Shown here in pieces: positions 55,186-62,484 of a DNA stretch of 64,000 nt (within the stretch, counting starts at the first letter, position 1; each line of letters begins with the position of its first letter). The translations under genes and the position numbers were made by a program. Source of the stretch: a candidate division FCPU426 bacterium (GTDB lineage: Bacteria > Oederibacteriota > Muellerivitia > Muellerivitales > Muellerivitaceae); the NCBI GenBank assembly GCA_963847625.1, contig CAWKAR010000034.1:49358-113357 (forward strand), read 5' to 3'. The notes under the pieces were generated by a model. That model saw only the letters and a list, made by a program, of their open reading frames with translations, ran no database searches and was not told the origin of the DNA.

Positions 55186-55533
55186 TTATGAATGGGCTAG
55201 TCCCGTTAATTTACCGGCCATTTCATACAAAAGCCGTTTAGTTTGGGATGGATGGGTTTTCAACCCTTCCGCCCAATAGCCGACAGCGGCCGGTATGGGA
55301 TTTTTTCCCTGCTCCCATTTTTTAACCGTTTCGGGGCTCACTGCCATGATCCGCGCGAATTTGGGCTGGCTGACGTTAAGGATATTCCTTGCTTCCTTGA
55401 TGTCCTTCCCCGTTGTCCGTATCAGCAAATTTTCAACTTTCACCTTGGCTTTCCTGCCTTGCGCGTATTTCAAACCTTCGCGAAGGCTTGCCTTGAGTGA
55501 ATCCAGTTCTTTTGGTTTATTTTCGTTTTTCAC
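55186..55533 (-). CDS. XRE-HTH antitoxin (HigA-like)
   Basis: IKEARNILNVSQPKFA...TVKKWEQG..P; overlaps the toxin stop. Confidence 0.85.
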   Translation of the reverse strand: MKNENKPKELDSLKASLREGLKYAQGRKAKVKVENLLIRTTGKDIKEARNILNVSQPKFARIMAVSPETVKKWEQGKNPIPAAVGYWAEGLKTHPSQTKRLLYEMAGKLTGLAHS

Positions 55534-55925
55534 GATTTCCCTCCCCTGTCTTGGTAAGCCCTCTTAAAGGCATCCGCCATATCCTTTAAAACTTTCTTTT
55601 CATCCGCCGCAAGGCCGGATTTAAAACGGTGGTTATAAACGGTTTGAAGGTATATATCGTGTTGGACCCGGAAAAGAAGGTAGATGAACCTGAACCCCCC
55701 GCTCTTACCAATATTCCTGCTTGGGGAACCAGCCCTCCCTTTTATCCATCCACCAGTGCCTTTCATCTCGTCAAATTTCCCGGATTCAATCGCGGTCTTT
55801 ATACCCGCCCTCACTTCGTTGTGAAGCCCGGGCTCCAAACGCCGAAGGGTTTTAATGTCCTTCACGTATTGGGGGAGGAGAATCAACTTATAGTTGATCT
55901 CCGAGACCGCCATTTCTTCCATCAT
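55530..55925 (-). CDS. RelE/HigB-family toxin (start approximate)
   Basis: GTGG..K.R....GKSGGFRFIY motif; toxin-first gene order. Confidence 0.8.
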   Translation of the reverse strand: MMEEMAVSEINYKLILLPQYVKDIKTLRRLEPGLHNEVRAGIKTAIESGKFDEMKGTGGWIKGRAGSPSRNIGKSGGFRFIYLLFRVQHDIYLQTVYNHRFKSGLAADEKKVLKDMADAFKRAYQDRGGKS

Positions 55926-56051
55926 GGACCCCAAATCCGATATATGGTATTTAATACCATATGTGCTTTTTATTGTCAACGGGGCGAAAAGGGTTTAACC
56001 AAGTGGAAGCGCCGCTCCCGGCGGCAAGGGCCTTCCCGCCTTCCAATGGGT

Positions 56052-57983
56052 TTATTGCCCCGTGCCGCTTTGCGGCACCATCATCTCCAGCGTCATCCTG
56101 GGCGTCTTGGGGGACACCTTCGCGTCCCGGATCACGTAAACCTCATGCCTGCCCGGCTTGAGCGCGTCCATCCGGCGCACCATGTCGAGGGGTTTCAGCT
56201 GGCGGGCGCCGTCCCGGTCCACGCCCCATACCGCGTCGCTTAATTCCAAACCCGGCTTGTCCGCCGGGCTCCCTGCCCATAACGCCCCGACTTTCCCTTC
56301 GTTGTCGGGCACCAATCCCTGGTGAAGGTAAGGCAGGCCCGAGGGCGCGATGTTCTTGGCCCAATAGAGCAGGGCTGAAACCAGGCTGTTGAAATCCTCC
56401 CGGGAGGGACATACGATCTCGACGGCCTTTTCAAGGTTGGATGACACCAGCCCGCATTGGTACAGGATCTTTTCCTTGTTATTCGCGTATATCCGAATCT
56501 CGTCGCAATGGATGGCCTTCAGGTTATCCCAATCAAGCGACGCGGTTCCTTTATCCATGAATGCCAAGGATAGGGAGGTTGGGTTCGCGGTGGCCGATTC
56601 AACGGTAACGCTGTCATTCCCGTACCAGACGGAATACTTGTGGGAATCCTGTAGGAGGGCAAGCAGATTATCCGCCATCGTCGCGTCCATTCCCGCCACC
56701 GGGGGAAGGATGGGCTTGATGACGCAGTAACCGGGAATGGGAAATAATTCGTTGTCCCTTTGTAATTCGGTTTCGAGGGAAGGATTCCAAGCTACGGGCC
56801 CTAAAGGGCCCGAATTTTGAATTTCGAATGATGAATTATGAATTGCGGAAGGTTCAACGGGCGCGATTGCGCCCGAATTTTGAATTGAAGAAGATTCGTT
56901 ATTCGTACCCTCATTCGAACCTTTTGTGTTTGGGAACCGGCTGGAAATGAATTGGGTTGTTTTGTCCCAGAGAGTACTGGTCAATTTGTGAAAAGTGGCA
57001 TGGAAGCCGAAATAAAGGACGATGCCAGCAAGGATGATCAGGCTAACAACCTTTTTTACCGGCCTCCCCACGACAGACCAAGCTTCCTTGAATGGCCATT
57101 TAATCACAATCCAAATTACTTTGAAGAGCCATTTTATTAAGTGCCCAATCGCCTTGAAAATCCCAATTAAGATTTTGCGGCTGAGCACCCCCAAGTTTCT
57201 GGCCTCAAAGTCCTTCCGGGTGATATCAAAAAACCCTCCCAGGAACACCAAAATACTGTTCGTTGAGCCCTTGGACTTGGCATGAGCGGGCTTTTCTGGA
57301 TCAGGTTCCGCCTCTGGTTTAGCCACCTCTTGGCCGCTTGAGGCGCCACCTCGTAATACCTCAACCGCCAATCCAAGCTTTTCTCCTAGGGTCAGCGGTT
57401 TACCCCCCGCCCCCTGGACCGAGGCCACAAGCCGAGGTCCATGATTTGGGTGTGTTGGTTCCATAGGGGAACCAGCCTTGGCTTCTTCCAGCCGCTGGTC
57501 CAAAGCCATTTGGGCTTTTTCGGTCTTTTCTATAACCCCCGTTTTTTTATCGGAACGCGTCTTTCTTTTAACCTGTTTAGGATCAAAATCCTTGGCCGGT
57601 TTGCCGCTGATAACATGGTCCACCAGGGCATTGATTTGCAAAGTAACCAAGTCGTTTTTTATGGCGACATCCAATACTTCATGAACCACGCGAGGAAGGT
57701 CCGCGACATTTTCATCCAGTTTGGAAAGGACTTTGGCGTTATTAAAAGAAAGGGTAAAAGGGGGGTTACCCTCTGCCGCGTGGATGATCTTTTCGAGGGC
57801 TAATGGGTCTAAACAGTTGTTAAGGGCCAAAAGGAAAGTTGTTTTTGTCCGGTTTTTACCGAGGATAGGGGCTAACTTGCTAGCTACGGCTGAGGGGTCT
57901 TTTTTTAACTCGGCTTTTAGGTCATCAAGATCATCCAACCAAGCTAAAGATTCTGGTCTTTTACCGGCCATGGTAATCTCCAT
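56052..57983 (-). CDS. Hypothetical membrane protein with a C-terminal PDZ-like segment
   Basis: 643-aa ORF; central hydrophobic segment; GSPADKPGL...D.V..VD. Confidence 0.65.
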   Translation of the reverse strand: MEITMAGKRPESLAWLDDLDDLKAELKKDPSAVASKLAPILGKNRTKTTFLLALNNCLDPLALEKIIHAAEGNPPFTLSFNNAKVLSKLDENVADLPRVVHEVLDVAIKNDLVTLQINALVDHVISGKPAKDFDPKQVKRKTRSDKKTGVIEKTEKAQMALDQRLEEAKAGSPMEPTHPNHGPRLVASVQGAGGKPLTLGEKLGLAVEVLRGGASSGQEVAKPEAEPDPEKPAHAKSKGSTNSILVFLGGFFDITRKDFEARNLGVLSRKILIGIFKAIGHLIKWLFKVIWIVIKWPFKEAWSVVGRPVKKVVSLIILAGIVLYFGFHATFHKLTSTLWDKTTQFISSRFPNTKGSNEGTNNESSSIQNSGAIAPVEPSAIHNSSFEIQNSGPLGPVAWNPSLETELQRDNELFPIPGYCVIKPILPPVAGMDATMADNLLALLQDSHKYSVWYGNDSVTVESATANPTSLSLAFMDKGTASLDWDNLKAIHCDEIRIYANNKEKILYQCGLVSSNLEKAVEIVCPSREDFNSLVSALLYWAKNIAPSGLPYLHQGLVPDNEGKVGALWAGSPADKPGLELSDAVWGVDRDGARQLKPLDMVRRMDALKPGRHEVYVIRDAKVSPKTPRMTLEMMVPQSGTGQ

Positions 57984-58085
57984 GGGTTAAAAAATAGACT
58001 ACGGTTAATAAGCTTTAATTTATGGTAATAAATGGCAAAGCAACTGTTAACAAAAATAACATGGATTTTAAGGCGTAAAATAAGG

Positions 58086-58207
58086 TGTTCCCGGCTTAGC
58101 CGTTTTTGTTCCCGGCTTAAGTCCCCTGTTCCCGGCTTATCCCGGCTTTGTTCCCGGCTTAAGTCCCCTGTTCCCGGATTATCTCGGCTTTGTTCCCGGC
58201 TTAAGTC
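58086..58207. repeat. Left part of the 42-bp tandem repeat array
   Basis: TGTTCCCGGCTTAAGTCCCCTGTTCCCGG(C/A)TTATC(C/T)CGGCTT units. Confidence 0.9.
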
Positions 58208-58298
58208 TGGAGTGCGCCCTACCGGTTGGACAGTTCAGCTGAAAAATAGACAATAGGGAAACGGCTCAAGGGGTAGCCCCCCAAAGGAGCGTTTCCAG

Positions 58299-58646
58299 AT
58301 GGGTAAAATACGACGAAAATTCAGTGTTGATTTCAAACAACAGGTTCTCCGGGAAATAGAGGCTGGCCAGTCCCTGAATGGGGCCGCCCGCCAATATCAA
58401 ATCGACCCTAGCGTCATAAAACATTGGCGGGATAAATTTCGCCAAGGAACCCTCGTTGAAAAGCCTTCCGCCCGCGAAAAAGCCTTGGAGAAAGAAAATG
58501 AGAAGCTCAAGGCCAAAATCGGGGAAATGGTCATGGCCATGGACCTTTTAAAAAAATTCCAAAAATACGTGGAAAACCAGAAAAAGCTCGATACCTCCGT
58601 GATCACCGCGAAGAATTTGGCTCAATTTCAAAAGGATGTCGAATGA
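58299..58646 (+). CDS. IS3 transposase OrfA (HTH)
   Basis: RRKFSVDFK, AARQYQI, coiled coil LEKENEKLK. Confidence 0.9.
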   Translation: MGKIRRKFSVDFKQQVLREIEAGQSLNGAARQYQIDPSVIKHWRDKFRQGTLVEKPSAREKALEKENEKLKAKIGEMVMAMDLLKKFQKYVENQKKLDTSVITAKNLAQFQKDVE

Positions 58647-59488
58647 TGGAGATCCCTCGAAGCACCTATTATTCGGCCCTCAAGAGTTCACGGGAAACTC
58701 AGGAGCAAAAAGATCAATCCTTGAAGGACCTCATTGAGAAGGTGAGGCTGATTTTCCCCTATTACGGTTATCGGAAGCTCTACAAACACTTCTTACGGGA
58801 AGGATTAAGAATCAACGCTAAAAGAATTCGGCGAGTGGTAAGGAAATACGGCCTTTTCCCAATTTATTGGATGAAAAAGTTTAAAGTCCAAACCACCCAA
58901 TCCGACCACGACCTGCCGGTTTTTCCCAACCTCTTGAAAGGGTTGAAGGAAACTGCCATCAATCAAGTTTGGGTGGCGGATATTACTTATATTCGGATCC
59001 TCACTTGTTTTGTGTATCTGGCGGCCATCCTGGATCGTTTTTCCAGGAAGGTGATTGGTTGGGCGATTTCCAGGAGGTTGGATCGGGAGATTTCCCTTCA
59101 AGCCTTGAAAATGGCTTTGGAAGAAAGAAAACCACCCGAGGGCTGCATTCACCACTCGGATCGCGGGGTGCAGTATGCCTGTTGGGACTATGTGAGCCTT
59201 CTTCAAGCCAAGGGCTTGAGGGTCAGCATGTCCAGAACAGGCAACCCTTACGACAACGCACACGCGGAGTCATTTTTCAAGACATTGAAATACGAGGAGG
59301 TGCATCTTTTCAATTACGAAACGTTTGAGGAAGTGCTTCAACGGCTTCCTTACTTCATCGAGGAGGTGTATAACAAAAAACGGTTGCACTCTTCCCTCGG
59401 TTATCTGCCACCGGAGGAGTTTGAACGTCATGTGGTCTCAAGGCCACTGACTGAAATAGCCGTTAAACCTATTCTCAACTTAGAGTGA
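58643..59488 (+). CDS. IS3 transposase OrfB (DDE integrase core)
   Basis: YGYRK, WVADITYI, HHSDRGVQY, DNAHAESFFKTLKYE; ATGA overlap with OrfA. Confidence 0.95.
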   Translation: MMEIPRSTYYSALKSSRETQEQKDQSLKDLIEKVRLIFPYYGYRKLYKHFLREGLRINAKRIRRVVRKYGLFPIYWMKKFKVQTTQSDHDLPVFPNLLKGLKETAINQVWVADITYIRILTCFVYLAAILDRFSRKVIGWAISRRLDREISLQALKMALEERKPPEGCIHHSDRGVQYACWDYVSLLQAKGLRVSMSRTGNPYDNAHAESFFKTLKYEEVHLFNYETFEEVLQRLPYFIEEVYNKKRLHSSLGYLPPEEFERHVVSRPLTEIAVKPILNLE

Positions 59489-59518
59489 AACTGTCGCTGG
59501 TAAGGGCGCAGTCCAGTC

Positions 59519-60040
59519 CGCTGTTCCCGGGTTATCCCGGCCTGTTCCCGGCTTAAATCCCTTGTTCCCGGATTATCTCGGCTTGTTCCCGGCTTTAGCC
59601 CCCTGTTCTCGGGTTATCCCGGTTTTGTTCCCGGCTTAAGTCCCCTGTTCCCGGTTTATCCCGGCTTTGTTCCCGGCTTAAGTCCCCTGTTCCCGGCTTA
59701 TCCCGGTTTTGTTCCCGGCTCAAGTCCCCTGTTCCCGGTTTATCCCGGCTTTGTTCCCGGCTTAAGTCCCCTGTTCCCGGTTTATCCCGGCTTTGTTCCC
59801 GGCTTAAGTCCCCTGTTCCCGGTTTATCCCGGCTTGTTCCCGGCTTAAGTCCCCTGTTCCCGGCTTAAGTCCCTTGTTCCCGGATTATCTCGGCTTGTTC
59901 CCGGCTTTAGCCCCCTGTTCTCGGGTTATCCCGGTTTTGTTCCCGGCTTAAGTCCCCTGTTCCCGGTTTATCCCGGTCTCGTTTAATGGGTTATCTCCCC
60001 GTTTAATGGGTTAAGTCCCATTTAACGGATTATCCTGGTT
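59519..60040. repeat. Right part of the 42-bp tandem repeat array, degenerating into GTTTAATGGGTTA variants
   Basis: About 11 units of TGTTCCCGGCTTAAGTCCCCTGTTCCCGGTTTATCCCGGCTT. Confidence 0.92.
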
Positions 60041-60044
60041 CTGT

Positions 60045-60611
60045 TTATCGGGTTCGGTATAAGGCCCTGGTTTCCTCCAAATAACCGATCCTGCGTTTGG
60101 GTTTCTCGGGGACTTTCATCAGTTCCCTAATGGCGTCAAACACAGCCTGGAATTGGGCATCGTGGGATCCAACCTTTTTCTCCAAAGCCTCTAATTTTCG
60201 GGCCAAATCCTTATGAACCACTAAGGCTTCCCTTAGGCGTATAAACGCGCGCACGACGAAAACACTCATTCTCACTGCCTGTTTACTGTTTAGGACATTA
60301 GCCGCCATAATTGCCCCGTGTTCAGTAAAAACCCATGGCAATTTCCGTACCCCGCCGTGGCTTTTGTCTGCGATTAAACTTGAAGTCGCAAATTGCGACT
60401 TCAAGTTTGATGCCTCTTGATTTGTCATTTGAAACATGAAATCTTCAGGAAACCGGTCTTTATTACGTCTAACCTGTTCGTTCAAGCGTTTCGTCTGGAC
60501 TCCATAAATACGAGCTAAATCGGAATCCAATATGACTCGATGCCCACGAATAATGAAAATCAATCCCTCGACAACAGCCGGAACCTTATATTCAACCCGG
60601 TCTTCCGACAT
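60045..60611 (-). CDS. ORF6N-domain DNA-binding protein
   Basis: IRGHRVILDSDLARIYGVQTKRLNEQVRRNKDRFPEDFMFQ, FTEHGAIMAANVLNS, VVRAF; ATG at 60611 after GGAGG. Confidence 0.92.
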   Translation of the reverse strand: MSEDRVEYKVPAVVEGLIFIIRGHRVILDSDLARIYGVQTKRLNEQVRRNKDRFPEDFMFQMTNQEASNLKSQFATSSLIADKSHGGVRKLPWVFTEHGAIMAANVLNSKQAVRMSVFVVRAFIRLREALVVHKDLARKLEALEKKVGSHDAQFQAVFDAIRELMKVPEKPKRRIGYLEETRALYRTR

Positions 60612-60631
60612 AAATGCCTCCATACCTTGAT

Positions 60632-60756
60632 CTTGAAGTTACAATTTGTGATTTCAAGTTCGCTTTTCGATCCGGTCACAATTTGTGACCGGATCCTTTG
60701 TTTGAGGTCGCAATTTGCGACCTCAAACTTGATATTCCAATTTGGAATTTCAAGTT
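60632..60756. repeat. Array of four 27-31 bp palindromes with a CAATTTG core
   Basis: 60632-60658, 60669-60695, 60700-60728, 60726-60756; each resembles the palindrome inside the ORF6N gene at 60376-60408. Confidence 0.9.
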
Positions 60757-60840
60757 CTTGAGGCCCTTTCTTGCCCAAGTAAACTGGGTTTTCGGCCCCA
60801 ATGACCTGGTCAAAAATTGCTAATTTGTGGTTTGATTTCC

Positions 60841-60917
60841 GTGCCGATCATCCATAAAAACATAAGGAGATCGGTACAGTACCAGCCTCATTGTTAGTTT
60901 TATGGAAGGCTGGCACG
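60841..60917. repeat. Dispersed double-inverted-repeat element, copy 3 (diverged)
   Basis: GTGCCGATC..GATCGGTAC + GTACCAGCCT..AGGCTGGCAC. Confidence 0.65.
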
Positions 60918-61121
60918 CGTTTTGGAAATCCTCAATAATTCAAAATTCAGAATTTAAAATTGCCGTTCCAGTCATACGGTTAAGTGGCCAATTGGGGTAA
61001 TTTTAAAAGGGGGGGTTAAAAAAGTGCCATAAAAAAAGGCAGAAATTAGGAAAAAGGTTTCCTAAACCGTATTTTTGGCCCGAATAATGGAAGGAAAAAG
61101 GGGGGGATGGAATAAAGCAGA

Positions 61122-61451
61122 TTACTTCCCCTTATTTTTTTCCGGTGAAGCCGGAATTTTCTGGGCGATGGCCCTCAAGGGGTAGCCGAGGCCGTCGAAG
61201 ATCTTCTCGATCCGGACCCAGGTGGGGTTTCCCTTGCCCGAAAGCGTGAGGTATAGGTGCTGGCGGTTGAAGCCGGTTCGTTTGGCCAATTGGGTCATCC
61301 CTCCGGCCACCTTGGCGACGTTCCGGAGGGCCTGGAGAATCATCCGCTGGTCCTCATGGGCGAGCGCCTGGTTGAGATATTCCAGGCGAAAAGCCTCATC
61401 CCGGCTTAATTTCCGCAATAAAAGTTTCTGGTCAGAAACCGTCTTTTTCAT
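61122..61451 (-). CDS. Addiction-module antidote protein (HTH), no adjacent toxin
   Basis: EYLNQAL...ALRNVAK..GGMTQLAKRTG..RQHLY.TLS..GNPT. Confidence 0.85.
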   Translation of the reverse strand: MKKTVSDQKLLLRKLSRDEAFRLEYLNQALAHEDQRMILQALRNVAKVAGGMTQLAKRTGFNRQHLYLTLSGKGNPTWVRIEKIFDGLGYPLRAIAQKIPASPEKNKGK

Positions 61452-62484
61452 TCATGGCATCCTAACTTAGGTTGTCGGATATACACGACAACCTGTCATG
61501 AACCCACAAGGTGAATGACTGGCCTTGGTGGTGCCAATTGCAAATGACAATTGGCCAACATACCAGAGAGTGTTGTTTTTGGGAAGGTAGTTGATGAAGC
61601 CATAATGGAAGACATAGGTGGGGAAACAAAAGGCCCCTCATCAGGTTGTCGGATATACGCGACAACTTGTTCTGAGACCTCAGGCTCTTGCCACGAGGCC
61701 ACAAGCCGAGTGGCATGCTTTAGATGTGCCGGATCTAACGTTATTAAGATCCGGCGTCGAAGAACATGGTTATGTAGTGCCAATTGTTATAAACAATTGG
61801 CCAGCATAAGGAAAGACCAGAGGGATTGAACACCAAGGTCTAAAAAGCAAAGGATTAAAGACTTAGCGGACAAAACCCAGCGGAAGAGGCATGGAGGCTT
61901 GGGGAAATAGGTTTCCTTGGCCTTATTTATAGCCGGAAAACAGGATGGAAAAGGGGCCTGAACTAGGTTGGTTGAAAGAACTCAATTTAAAACATTGCGG
62001 TAAGTGGCCTTGCGATGAGGTACTCGAACCGTTCGGGCACACCAGCTTTTGCCAATAATCCCAGCGGTTCGAATGAGGCCGCGAATGAAGAACCTTCCGA
62101 AATTCATAATTCATCATTCAAAATTCAAAATTCGGGCCCTTCCGGGCCCGTTAGTTTGTTCCCCGAAAGATTTCTATGATGAACCAAGATCCTTAAAAAT
62201 AATTTGGAGTCGTCCCAGGGGAAAAAAAGGATGAGGTTTGATTGGTCCCGCCGAGCATCAGAGGGGATTTACCCACCAATCAACCACAAGTTGATTGGTG
62301 GTGGTTGGTCATGCCATTTGAAAAAACAAATGGTATTCGTGGGATTTGCCGATCACTTAACCACCAGTTAAGTGATAATGCTTGGCAATGCCAATTGAAA
62401 AACAATTGGTATAAAGCGGGGGGCCTCAGCGGCCTAAAGCGGAATATGTACCCTATCGCACGCTGTGGTGCGTGTGATCTGACC

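Follow-up and report, generated by a model that had tools for sequence, protein, structure and literature searches.

An ORF6N gene of a candidate division FCPU426 bacterium with variant palindromes inside and upstream of it: candidate binding sites for ORF6N-family proteins

The ORF6N gene and its five palindromes

We analyzed a stretch of 64,000 nucleotides (hereafter the window; C34:49358-113357) from the assembly of a candidate division FCPU426 bacterium (4,430,899 bp, or 4.43 Mb, in 63 contigs; 93.9% complete). The subject is an ORF6N gene on the minus strand of the window (60045-60623), which contains one long palindrome within its codons and is preceded by four more. The ORF6N domain is widespread, without a described mechanism, and is found on plasmids, phages and defence islands. 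The gene encodes 192 amino acids when read from the first ATG. The second ATG, at 60611, is the likely start, because a GGAGG ribosome-binding site, as read from the sequence (60617-60621, minus strand), stands 5 nt ahead of it; the protein would then have 188 amino acids. ORF6N is the only Pfam family reported for the product (PF10543, 112.1 bits against a cut-off of 27.8, E=1.5e-32, model positions 3-86 of 86). PADLOC, for which no curated cut-off was available here, additionally matched it to the PDC-S05 models PDLC04869 and PDLC04856 (E=1.6e-49) and PDLC04849 (E=2e-33). Three family members are present in the assembly, and the window copy is the sole intact one, the other two being frameshifted or truncated.

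The internal palindrome (60376-60408) is perfect over 33 bp (16+1+16), encodes NLKSQFATSSL, residues 69-79 of the 188-residue protein, and lengthens to 60373-60411 if one mismatch is allowed. The four upstream palindromes, P1 to P4, lie within 125 bp just upstream of the gene. All five share the core CAA-W-TTG and differ in their arms; in the following, half-site positions are numbered outward from the centre. P1 (60632-60658), nearest to the gene, has 13-nt arms with two mismatches, both of them G-T on the plus strand, and an A at position 4; it stops 20 nt short of the ATG at 60611 and 10 nt short of the ribosome-binding site. P2 (60669-60695) is perfect (13+1+13), belongs to the CCGGTCACAA class and also has an A at position 4. 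P3 (60700-60728), again perfect (14+1+14), has the same inner seven bases as the internal palindrome, and is for this reason the predicted cognate site of the gene's own protein. P4 (60726-60756), the member farthest from the gene, is of the CCAA class, with 15+1+15 nucleotides and one T-T mismatch. The upstream palindromes are spaced 27-37 bp apart and two of them overlap (P4 and P3 share 3 bp, and their centres are 27 nt apart). Predicted single-stranded folding energies for the internal palindrome and P1 to P4, in this order, were -16.5, -5.0, -13.5, -15.4 and -9.7 kcal/mol, with z-scores of -9.8, -2.4, -7.8, -8.4 and -5.5.

The initial annotation of this DNA had described the perfect internal palindrome and the four closely packed upstream ones with different, self-complementary arms, and all five were found as it placed them, with two mismatches in P1 and one in P4. 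It had also noted that a single plus-strand frame reads ORF6N-like peptides through all four upstream palindromes. This is correct for P1, P3 and P4; the P2 peptide is ORF6N-like in a different frame only.

The cluster cannot be due to chance. A count of odd palindromes with 12 or more matching arm positions gave 49 in the whole genome of 4,430,899 bp. This family accounts for eight, all at four loci, namely the three ORF6N genes and one related locus without such a gene, and three of the eight lie within 125 bp at the window locus, where about 0.0014 would be expected. By itself, the CAAWTTG heptamer is no more frequent in the window than expected (15 occurrences versus 16.2). It occurs 667 times in the genome, and only six occurrences have perfect arms of at least 12 nucleotides, all on contigs C34, C21 and C45.

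Palindromes persist in both broken ORF6N genes of the genome. The gene on C21 (L002) is frameshifted, with a perfect internal palindrome kept at the same codons and two further palindromes upstream. The gene on C3 (L003) is cut off about five codons past its internal palindrome, which is of the CCA class. The fourth locus lies at the start of C45 and lacks an ORF6N gene; its two family palindromes stand between a 136-bp leader and a tandem array that precedes a paralogue of a window gene for 643 amino acids. Family sites before a paralogous downstream gene, in a place without ORF6N, fit control in trans.

Family-wide conservation of the internal palindrome and its link to the recognition helix

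In order to examine the palindrome in other members of the family, we searched one genome per species for relatives, confirmed 595 among 603 candidate stretches and kept the best 80. These homologous loci come from many phyla, have 49-62% identity, and were examined over up to 2.5 kb on each side of the gene. A palindrome was present at the homologous codons in 69 of the 80 loci. The mean number of arm matches was 11.16 of 13, compared with 5.0 after synonymous resampling with each gene's own codon usage, and the excess was significant at p<=0.01 in 70 of the 80 loci. In several homologous loci, the palindrome is kept in another reading frame. The internal palindrome is a DNA-level feature of the whole ORF6N family. 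This is a case of a protein stretch that is dictated largely by a DNA signal, which matters for the reading of conserved motifs in the ORF6N family.

The palindrome had been taken to mark a hypervariable position of the protein. This segment is indeed the most divergent one between paralogues of the same genome, yet as DNA it is strongly conserved across the family. The peptides spelled by the upstream palindromes had been thought to resemble those of homologues at this position. LRSQFATSN, spelled by P3, is found exactly in four loci (L016, L017, L062 and L063), and the other three peptides have near relatives. Such peptide resemblance follows from DNA similarity and does not separate cassettes that are swapped into the gene from target sites that are bound.

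The AlphaFold2 model of the protein (mean predicted local distance difference test score, pLDDT, 73.4) consists of a helix-turn-helix (HTH) with a wing, followed by a long helix (residues 110-147). The best structural matches are DNA-binding winged-helix domains, namely pSK1 Par on DNA (Z 6.8), RacA (5.8), MerR types and Mbp1 (3.9); a profile search of PDB sequences with the ORF6N product gave coiled coils only. Judging from the order of secondary structure elements and the weak winged-helix matches, residues 40-49 (TKRLNEQVRR; codons 60465-60494, minus strand; pLDDT above 90) probably form the recognition helix. The peptide encoded by the palindrome corresponds in the model to the end of helix 64-72 and to a low-confidence loop (residues 75-86) between both wing strands. 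Some ORF6N genes contain two palindromes, 36-42 nt apart (for example L251:1151 and 1187, and L285:1219 and 1261), and the second one lies in the segment that matches this low-confidence wing loop.

Half-site positions 1-3 and 6 are nearly invariant, and positions 4, 5, 7 and 8 vary. Outside the residues encoded by the palindrome itself, mutual information links site position 4 to residues 42, 45 and 46, and position 7 to residues 41 and 37. All 52 loci with G at position 4 have arginine at residue 42, whereas none of the 11 with A or C has it (Fisher 1.6e-12), so that the rule holds in all 63 loci. Glu45 accompanies C at position 5, and Gln45 the other types; where the site is of the A type, residue 42 is Val, Ala or Gln and residue 45 is Gln. 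The codons of helix 40-49 are about 100 nt upstream of the palindrome and outside the peptide that it encodes. A separate metagenome set fits the Arg42-G4 rule in 38 of 42 cases (Fisher 9e-8). Site positions 9 and 13 are also associated with residues 85-90 of the wing loop, an association that is uncontrolled for phylogeny.

The association between position 4 and Arg42 recurs independently on a maximum-likelihood tree from which the columns of helix and palindrome had been left out. On this tree, the site type changes at least nine times, and Arg42 changes in step in 7 of 7 independent pairs on supported branches (sign test p=0.016). A quicker tree gave 4 of 4 agreeing pairs, which is underpowered. 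Arginine reading guanine is a classic contact. The window protein has Arg42 and Glu45, and the site predicted from these residues, GTCGCAA, is exactly the inner seven bases of the internal palindrome and of P3; the gene thus contains the site type predicted for its own protein. Since position 4 tracks a residue outside the palindrome-encoded peptide, ORF6N-family proteins most likely use the palindromes as binding sites.

The same link bears on a reading in which the palindromes act through structure, as DNA hairpins or cruciforms in recombination, integration or replication, or as RNA hairpins of the 5'-UTR and the coding sequence in the control of stability or translation, and are read by a factor outside the ORF6N family. 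The arms are self-complementary over 13-16 nt even between classes, paralogous arrays differ by compensatory changes, the predicted single-strand folding is strong, and P1 to P3 score as terminator-like on the plus strand. Nevertheless, structure would leave the link between Arg42 and position 4 unexplained. Mismatches show no G-U excess on the sense strand: G-T and A-C mismatches numbered 6 and 10 in internal palindromes and 6 and 9 in upstream ones, a lack of strand bias that fits duplex recognition better than an RNA hairpin. Terminator-like counts were not above those of shuffled sequences (5 versus 2.8 +/- 2.1), no palindrome is followed by a U-run on the gene's strand, and no Rfam family reached its threshold in a scan of 58000-62000 (best match rivX, 17.6 bits versus a threshold of 100). 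We regard a purely structural role as quite unlikely. As for orientation, the cores had been described as inverted relative to the gene. This applies only to the central base at the window locus and is no rule elsewhere, where centres are mixed, as also fits duplex recognition (on the gene strand, A 19, T 10 and C 2 for upstream palindromes; T 38, A 30 and C 1 for internal ones).

Covariation is also at odds with the first of two explanations offered by the initial annotation, in which the upstream hairpins would be a library of donors, and conversion of the internal palindrome by them would diversify the protein. Each upstream palindrome can indeed be read as an ORF6N-like peptide in one frame or another, and paralogues of one genome diverge most in the palindrome region, as such a library would have it. 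However, the distant recognition helix changes together with the site, and swapping the palindrome alone would uncouple the two. The homology of the upstream copies to ORF6N genes is limited to the approximately 17 residues that the palindrome itself spells, so that a donor would have no flanking homology. No diversifying enzyme is encoded nearby, be it a reverse transcriptase, an invertase or a dedicated recombinase, and the only candidates in the vicinity are IS3 and IS110 transposases. The close packing of the upstream palindromes, with two of them overlapping, also speaks against such donors. Contigs from three public DNA runs of one study gave only short pieces, many of them from ORF6N genes of other organisms, and showed no variant allele; this is a weak test, since no piece spanned the region, and it speaks neither for nor against alternative alleles or inversions. 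Donor cassettes found no support and appear very improbable.

Placement and composition of the upstream arrays

Outside the gene, family palindromes are concentrated only within 0-270 nt before the start codon. When the 80 homologous loci were divided into 100-bp bins, 71 palindromes were internal, and 15, 9 and 7 fell into the three bins before the start codon. All other bins covered by at least 60 loci contained 0-2 palindromes, except for 5 and 3 just after the gene. In total, 31 upstream palindromes were distributed over 22 of the 80 loci. Arrays thus do stand near other ORF6N genes: the closest homologue of the window gene (L004) has five upstream palindromes, and L018 has three.

A wider search for a pattern of two adjacent palindromes gave 9 loci in viral contigs and at least 120 stretches of metagenome DNA; the former and 80 of the latter, 89 loci in total, were analyzed. 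An ORF6N-like gene was present within 2 kb in 65 of the 89. Among the 192 palindromes of all 89 loci, 100 were inside ORF6N-like genes, 43 upstream and 9 downstream, and 40 were in loci without a match. In viral contigs, a loose three-core pattern, for which 80 of 122 stretches were examined, led to only two with at least two palindromes, and these were of a different kind.

Members of one array are different from each other. In the 16 loci with at least two upstream palindromes, members differ by a mean of 9.7 of 26 positions, and only 1 of 27 pairs is near-identical. The type of a site was defined by its positions 5 and 4, and that of a protein by its residues 42 and 45. At least one upstream palindrome of the type predicted for the adjacent protein was found in 28 of 43 loci. 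Among 17 arrays, 12 include an own-type member and 13 are of mixed types. An upstream palindrome that stands alone is often the cognate of the gene's own site: the distance to the internal palindrome was 0-2 of 26 positions in 7 of the 14 loci compared, and the mean distance was 5.74 to the own site versus 6.68 to others (permutation p=0.03).

With a slightly looser detector, we obtained 23 arrays, five of which contain a member of the CCAA class. In all five, this member is the most distal one (probability of joint occurrence by chance 8e-4, rising to about 4e-3 when two arrays from one genome are counted once), and in 4 of the 5, the window included, the neighbouring member is 27-28 nt away. 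In one other genome (G001), two ORF6N loci have arrays of five members each, four of which follow one another in a common order. A compensatory double change separates the members of one pair, and each locus holds a near-copy of the internal site of the other gene. On account of the order and spacing of the CCAA member, the shared order in G001 and the compensatory change, we read the arrays as organized, inherited units rather than debris.

Paralogues of the same genome (L206 and L212 in G001; L208 and L211 in G002) are mosaic. The ends of their arrays and their C-terminal helices are 82-100% identical, their DNA-binding halves 55-75%, and the palindrome region is lowest with 45-62%, which suggests exchange of common parts or divergence of specificity. 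Recombination between copies, as these mosaics indicate, and the persistence of palindromes in both broken genes of the FCPU426 genome would also be expected if the upstream palindromes were neutral scars, left when recombination at the palindrome replaced former ORF6N genes or cassettes. However, no ORF6N coding remnant stands beside any upstream palindrome. P2 and P3 are perfect and P4 has a single mismatch, even though no coding constraint acts on them, and the conserved architecture, with the CCAA class most distal in 5 of 5 arrays and the 27-28 nt spacing in 4 of 5, speaks against scars. We consider this origin decidedly unlikely.

In the FCPU426 genome, A at position 4 is found in 5 of 8 external sites, and P2 and the A-type sites of C45 and C21 are perfect palindromes. 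Some external sites have a close relative among the internal sites of same-genome paralogues. One of the C45 palindromes (C45_U2) is at distance 2 from the internal site of the C21 gene (L002), with none of 67 pool sites as close, and one upstream palindrome in G001 (L206_806) is at distance 2 from the internal site of L212, again with none of the pool as close. P4 comes closest to the internal site of L003, the truncated gene on C3, whose helix has the residues that accompany the P4 class; here 6% of the pool was as close.

Docking sites for a family of proteins and comparison with known systems

We favour, at a little better than even probability, a reading in which the five palindromes are double-stranded docking sites for dimers of ORF6N-family winged-helix proteins. 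The window protein, with Arg42 and Glu45, would bind its own internal site and P3. Binding at these two would repress its own promoter, perhaps by looping over the 322 bp between them. P1 and P2, with A at position 4, and P4, of the CCAA class, would be sites for other ORF6N specificity classes; as a panel of such sites, the promoter region would respond to several ORF6N-type proteins, among them proteins brought in by other mobile elements. Binding, dimer, promoter position and direction of regulation are what we infer from the sequence patterns. The second explanation of the initial annotation, a stored set of target sites, fares correspondingly: the site type covaries with the recognition helix and arrays elsewhere mix classes, and the notion of a stored set is supported in part only.

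Several observations weigh against this docking-site reading. The structural matches are weak (Z below 8), and Foldseek found no match in the PDB at E<=0.001. In only 33 of 72 cases does the type of an upstream palindrome agree with the prediction for the adjacent protein, and array members are no closer to their own internal site than to random ones (mean distance 8.8 of 26; 2 or less in 2 of 37). External sites were not significantly closer to the internal sites of same-genome paralogues in Monte-Carlo tests of three genomes (p=0.29 in G000; 0.25 in G001, or 0.057 for non-own sites; 0.97 in G002). No protein with a helix of the A type was found in the 93.9%-complete assembly, in spite of the A-type majority among its external sites. 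Self-complementarity over 27-33 bp exceeds that of a typical dimer operator, so that hairpin or cruciform formation may also matter.

Furthermore, promoter scans found no sigma-70-like promoter on the gene's strand in the window or in L004. A promoter-like site was found at another locus (L290:706-733), where a -35-like TTGGCA lies in the gene-side arm of the distal CCAA palindrome and a -10-like CACAAT in the next core. The same geometry, 27-28 nt from centre to centre, is present in the window and in L004, there below the threshold of the promoter scan. It may be the reason for a distal CCAA member.

That arrays mix classes and keep a conserved order suggests that ORF6N genes respond to one another's products, which would be a new layer of regulation or immunity among mobile elements. 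A stronger version, to which we give a rather low probability, is that the array is a deliberate panel with one site per ORF6N specificity class (CCAA, GTCGCAA and GTCACAA), by which a resident defence gene senses, or is neutralized by, the ORF6N-type proteins of other elements. If true, the panel would be a code of cross-talk or cross-immunity between competing elements, written in palindromes that spell part of their own reader.

A serious alternative, although we think it rather improbable, is self-immunity: the ORF6N protein would act on replicating DNA as an anti-phage protein, and the palindromes would switch it off on the element in which they reside, with the mixed array giving immunity to several ORF6N-type proteins. 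It overlaps with the docking-site reading, because both need protein binding to the palindromes. Site classes in the arrays without a matching protein in the genome, and orphan palindromes on C45 without an ORF6N gene, would be accounted for. The protein matches PDC-S05 at E=1.6e-49, and, according to a preprint, a PDC-S05 representative reduced phage plating in Escherichia coli, about 1000-fold for T7 and T5 and about 10-fold for T4 (10.1101/2024.09.26.614923). That gene is described as carrying a RhuM domain, whereas the defence role of the window protein, which matches three PDC-S05 models, is only predicted; no palindrome is mentioned in the part of the preprint available to us (10.1101/2024.09.26.614923). 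In the FCPU426 genome, no RhuM or Bro-N gene was found, and the window is not a recognizable prophage.

BstA provides the precedent for such immunity. This defence protein has a KilA-N-like DNA-binding domain and is switched off by a cognate DNA element of 63 bp, aba, located across the start codon of its gene; other homologues have cognate elements of their own (PMC8585504). The likeness lies in a short DNA element in and just before the protein's own gene that acts as DNA and is specific for the homologue. However, aba has terminal direct CCCGCC repeats and is not a palindrome; neither a mid-gene palindrome nor a variant array is part of the system as reported there (PMC8585504). BstA is not an ORF6N (PF10543) protein, and binding of BstA to aba is not shown there either (PMC8585504). 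For the window locus, Pfam gives ORF6N only, and no terminal direct-repeat pair was found at the elements; the resemblance is functional only. A decoy, moreover, would not need to be promoter-proximal, whereas outside the gene the palindromes are almost only found in the 270 nt before it. Family arrays are also few in viral contigs, with 2 of 80 loci having loosely similar pairs in one scan and 9 loci in the second.

The neighbourhood of the locus contains repeats and mobile elements, with IS3 and IS110 transposases and toxin-antitoxin genes as the only neighbours of this kind. Cassette sites of 28-30 bp that occur elsewhere in the genome are absent from the locus, as judged by two genome palindromes picked as likely examples. 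Upstream of the palindromes, a 136-bp leader (60974-61109, minus strand) is identical to C45:865-1000 at 126 of 136 positions (with an identity of 94.7% to C45 over 131 bp, and of 97.6% to the C63 end over 84 bp), and it probably belongs to the same unit as the array. C63:93801-94509 repeats the start of C45 (C45:1-1000) almost exactly, leader included, and stops inside the leader; because the assembly breaks at this repeated unit, the copy number of the leader and palindrome unit may be undercounted. Between leader and array (60830-60925) stands a copy of a dispersed repeat, about 80 bp long and containing inverted repeats, which has 78 BLAST matches in the genome, 54 of at least 65 nt, on 25 contigs, and looks like a repetitive extragenic palindromic (REP) or miniature-element family. 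Toxin-antitoxin-type genes flank the unit (61122-61451 and 55186-55979), one being an HI1420-type antidote protein (PF21716) and the other a pair of a weak RelE-like match and an HTH protein. On C45, a different toxin-antitoxin pair, PemK/MazF-like by eye, occupies the same place before the common leader.

The window gene for 643 amino acids (56052-57983, minus strand) has no match in Pfam, PADLOC or Protein Atlas and at least six other paralogous segments in the genome. In the three copies examined, a tandem array of approximately 21-bp units directly precedes the start, with a unit sequence that differs by copy (window 58086-58207 and 59515-59983, with a 42-bp period; C45:1100-1520; C37:1-140), in an iteron- or centromere-like layout. 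The window array is split by an IS3-family element (58208-59515; orfA 58299-58646, orfB 58643-59488), an insertion that is recent, given its 99.9% identity to a C35 copy over 1308 bp.

Among known systems, pSK1 Par reportedly binds repeats upstream of its own gene. Par and RacA (8csh, 5i41) are the best matches of the N-terminal domain, with Z-scores as given above, and likewise consist of a DNA-binding domain followed by a long helix. However, only 53-56 residues are aligned, with 6-16% identity, and their sites are one kind of repeat. We found no evidence for a partition role of the ORF6N protein.

Cassette-based variation systems, such as pilE/pilS and vlsE gene conversion, shufflons and diversity-generating retroelements, also have several silent variant copies beside an expressed gene. 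Their donors share flanking homology or need a dedicated enzyme, whereas the window locus has neither.

In a search of the literature on ORF6N in general, ORF6N palindromes, six of their core sequences and palindromic binding by KilA-N proteins, we found no description of such sites, with most subscription journals outside the coverage. The general mechanism, in which a protein binds DNA both at and within the gene that encodes it, is nevertheless of a known kind. Auxiliary operators in coding sequences, such as lacO2 in lacZ and galOI in galE, are combined with sites at the promoter, and lambda OR1-OR3 is an array of three adjacent, variant near-palindromes. In contrast to the ORF6N palindromes, these sites lie in regulated genes and not in the gene of the regulator, and they are not known to be conserved throughout a family. 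The three lambda sites serve the same two proteins, whereas the classes in the ORF6N arrays track different recognition helices. New in comparison with these systems are a site embedded in the wing-coding segment family-wide, and ordered arrays that mix specificity classes.

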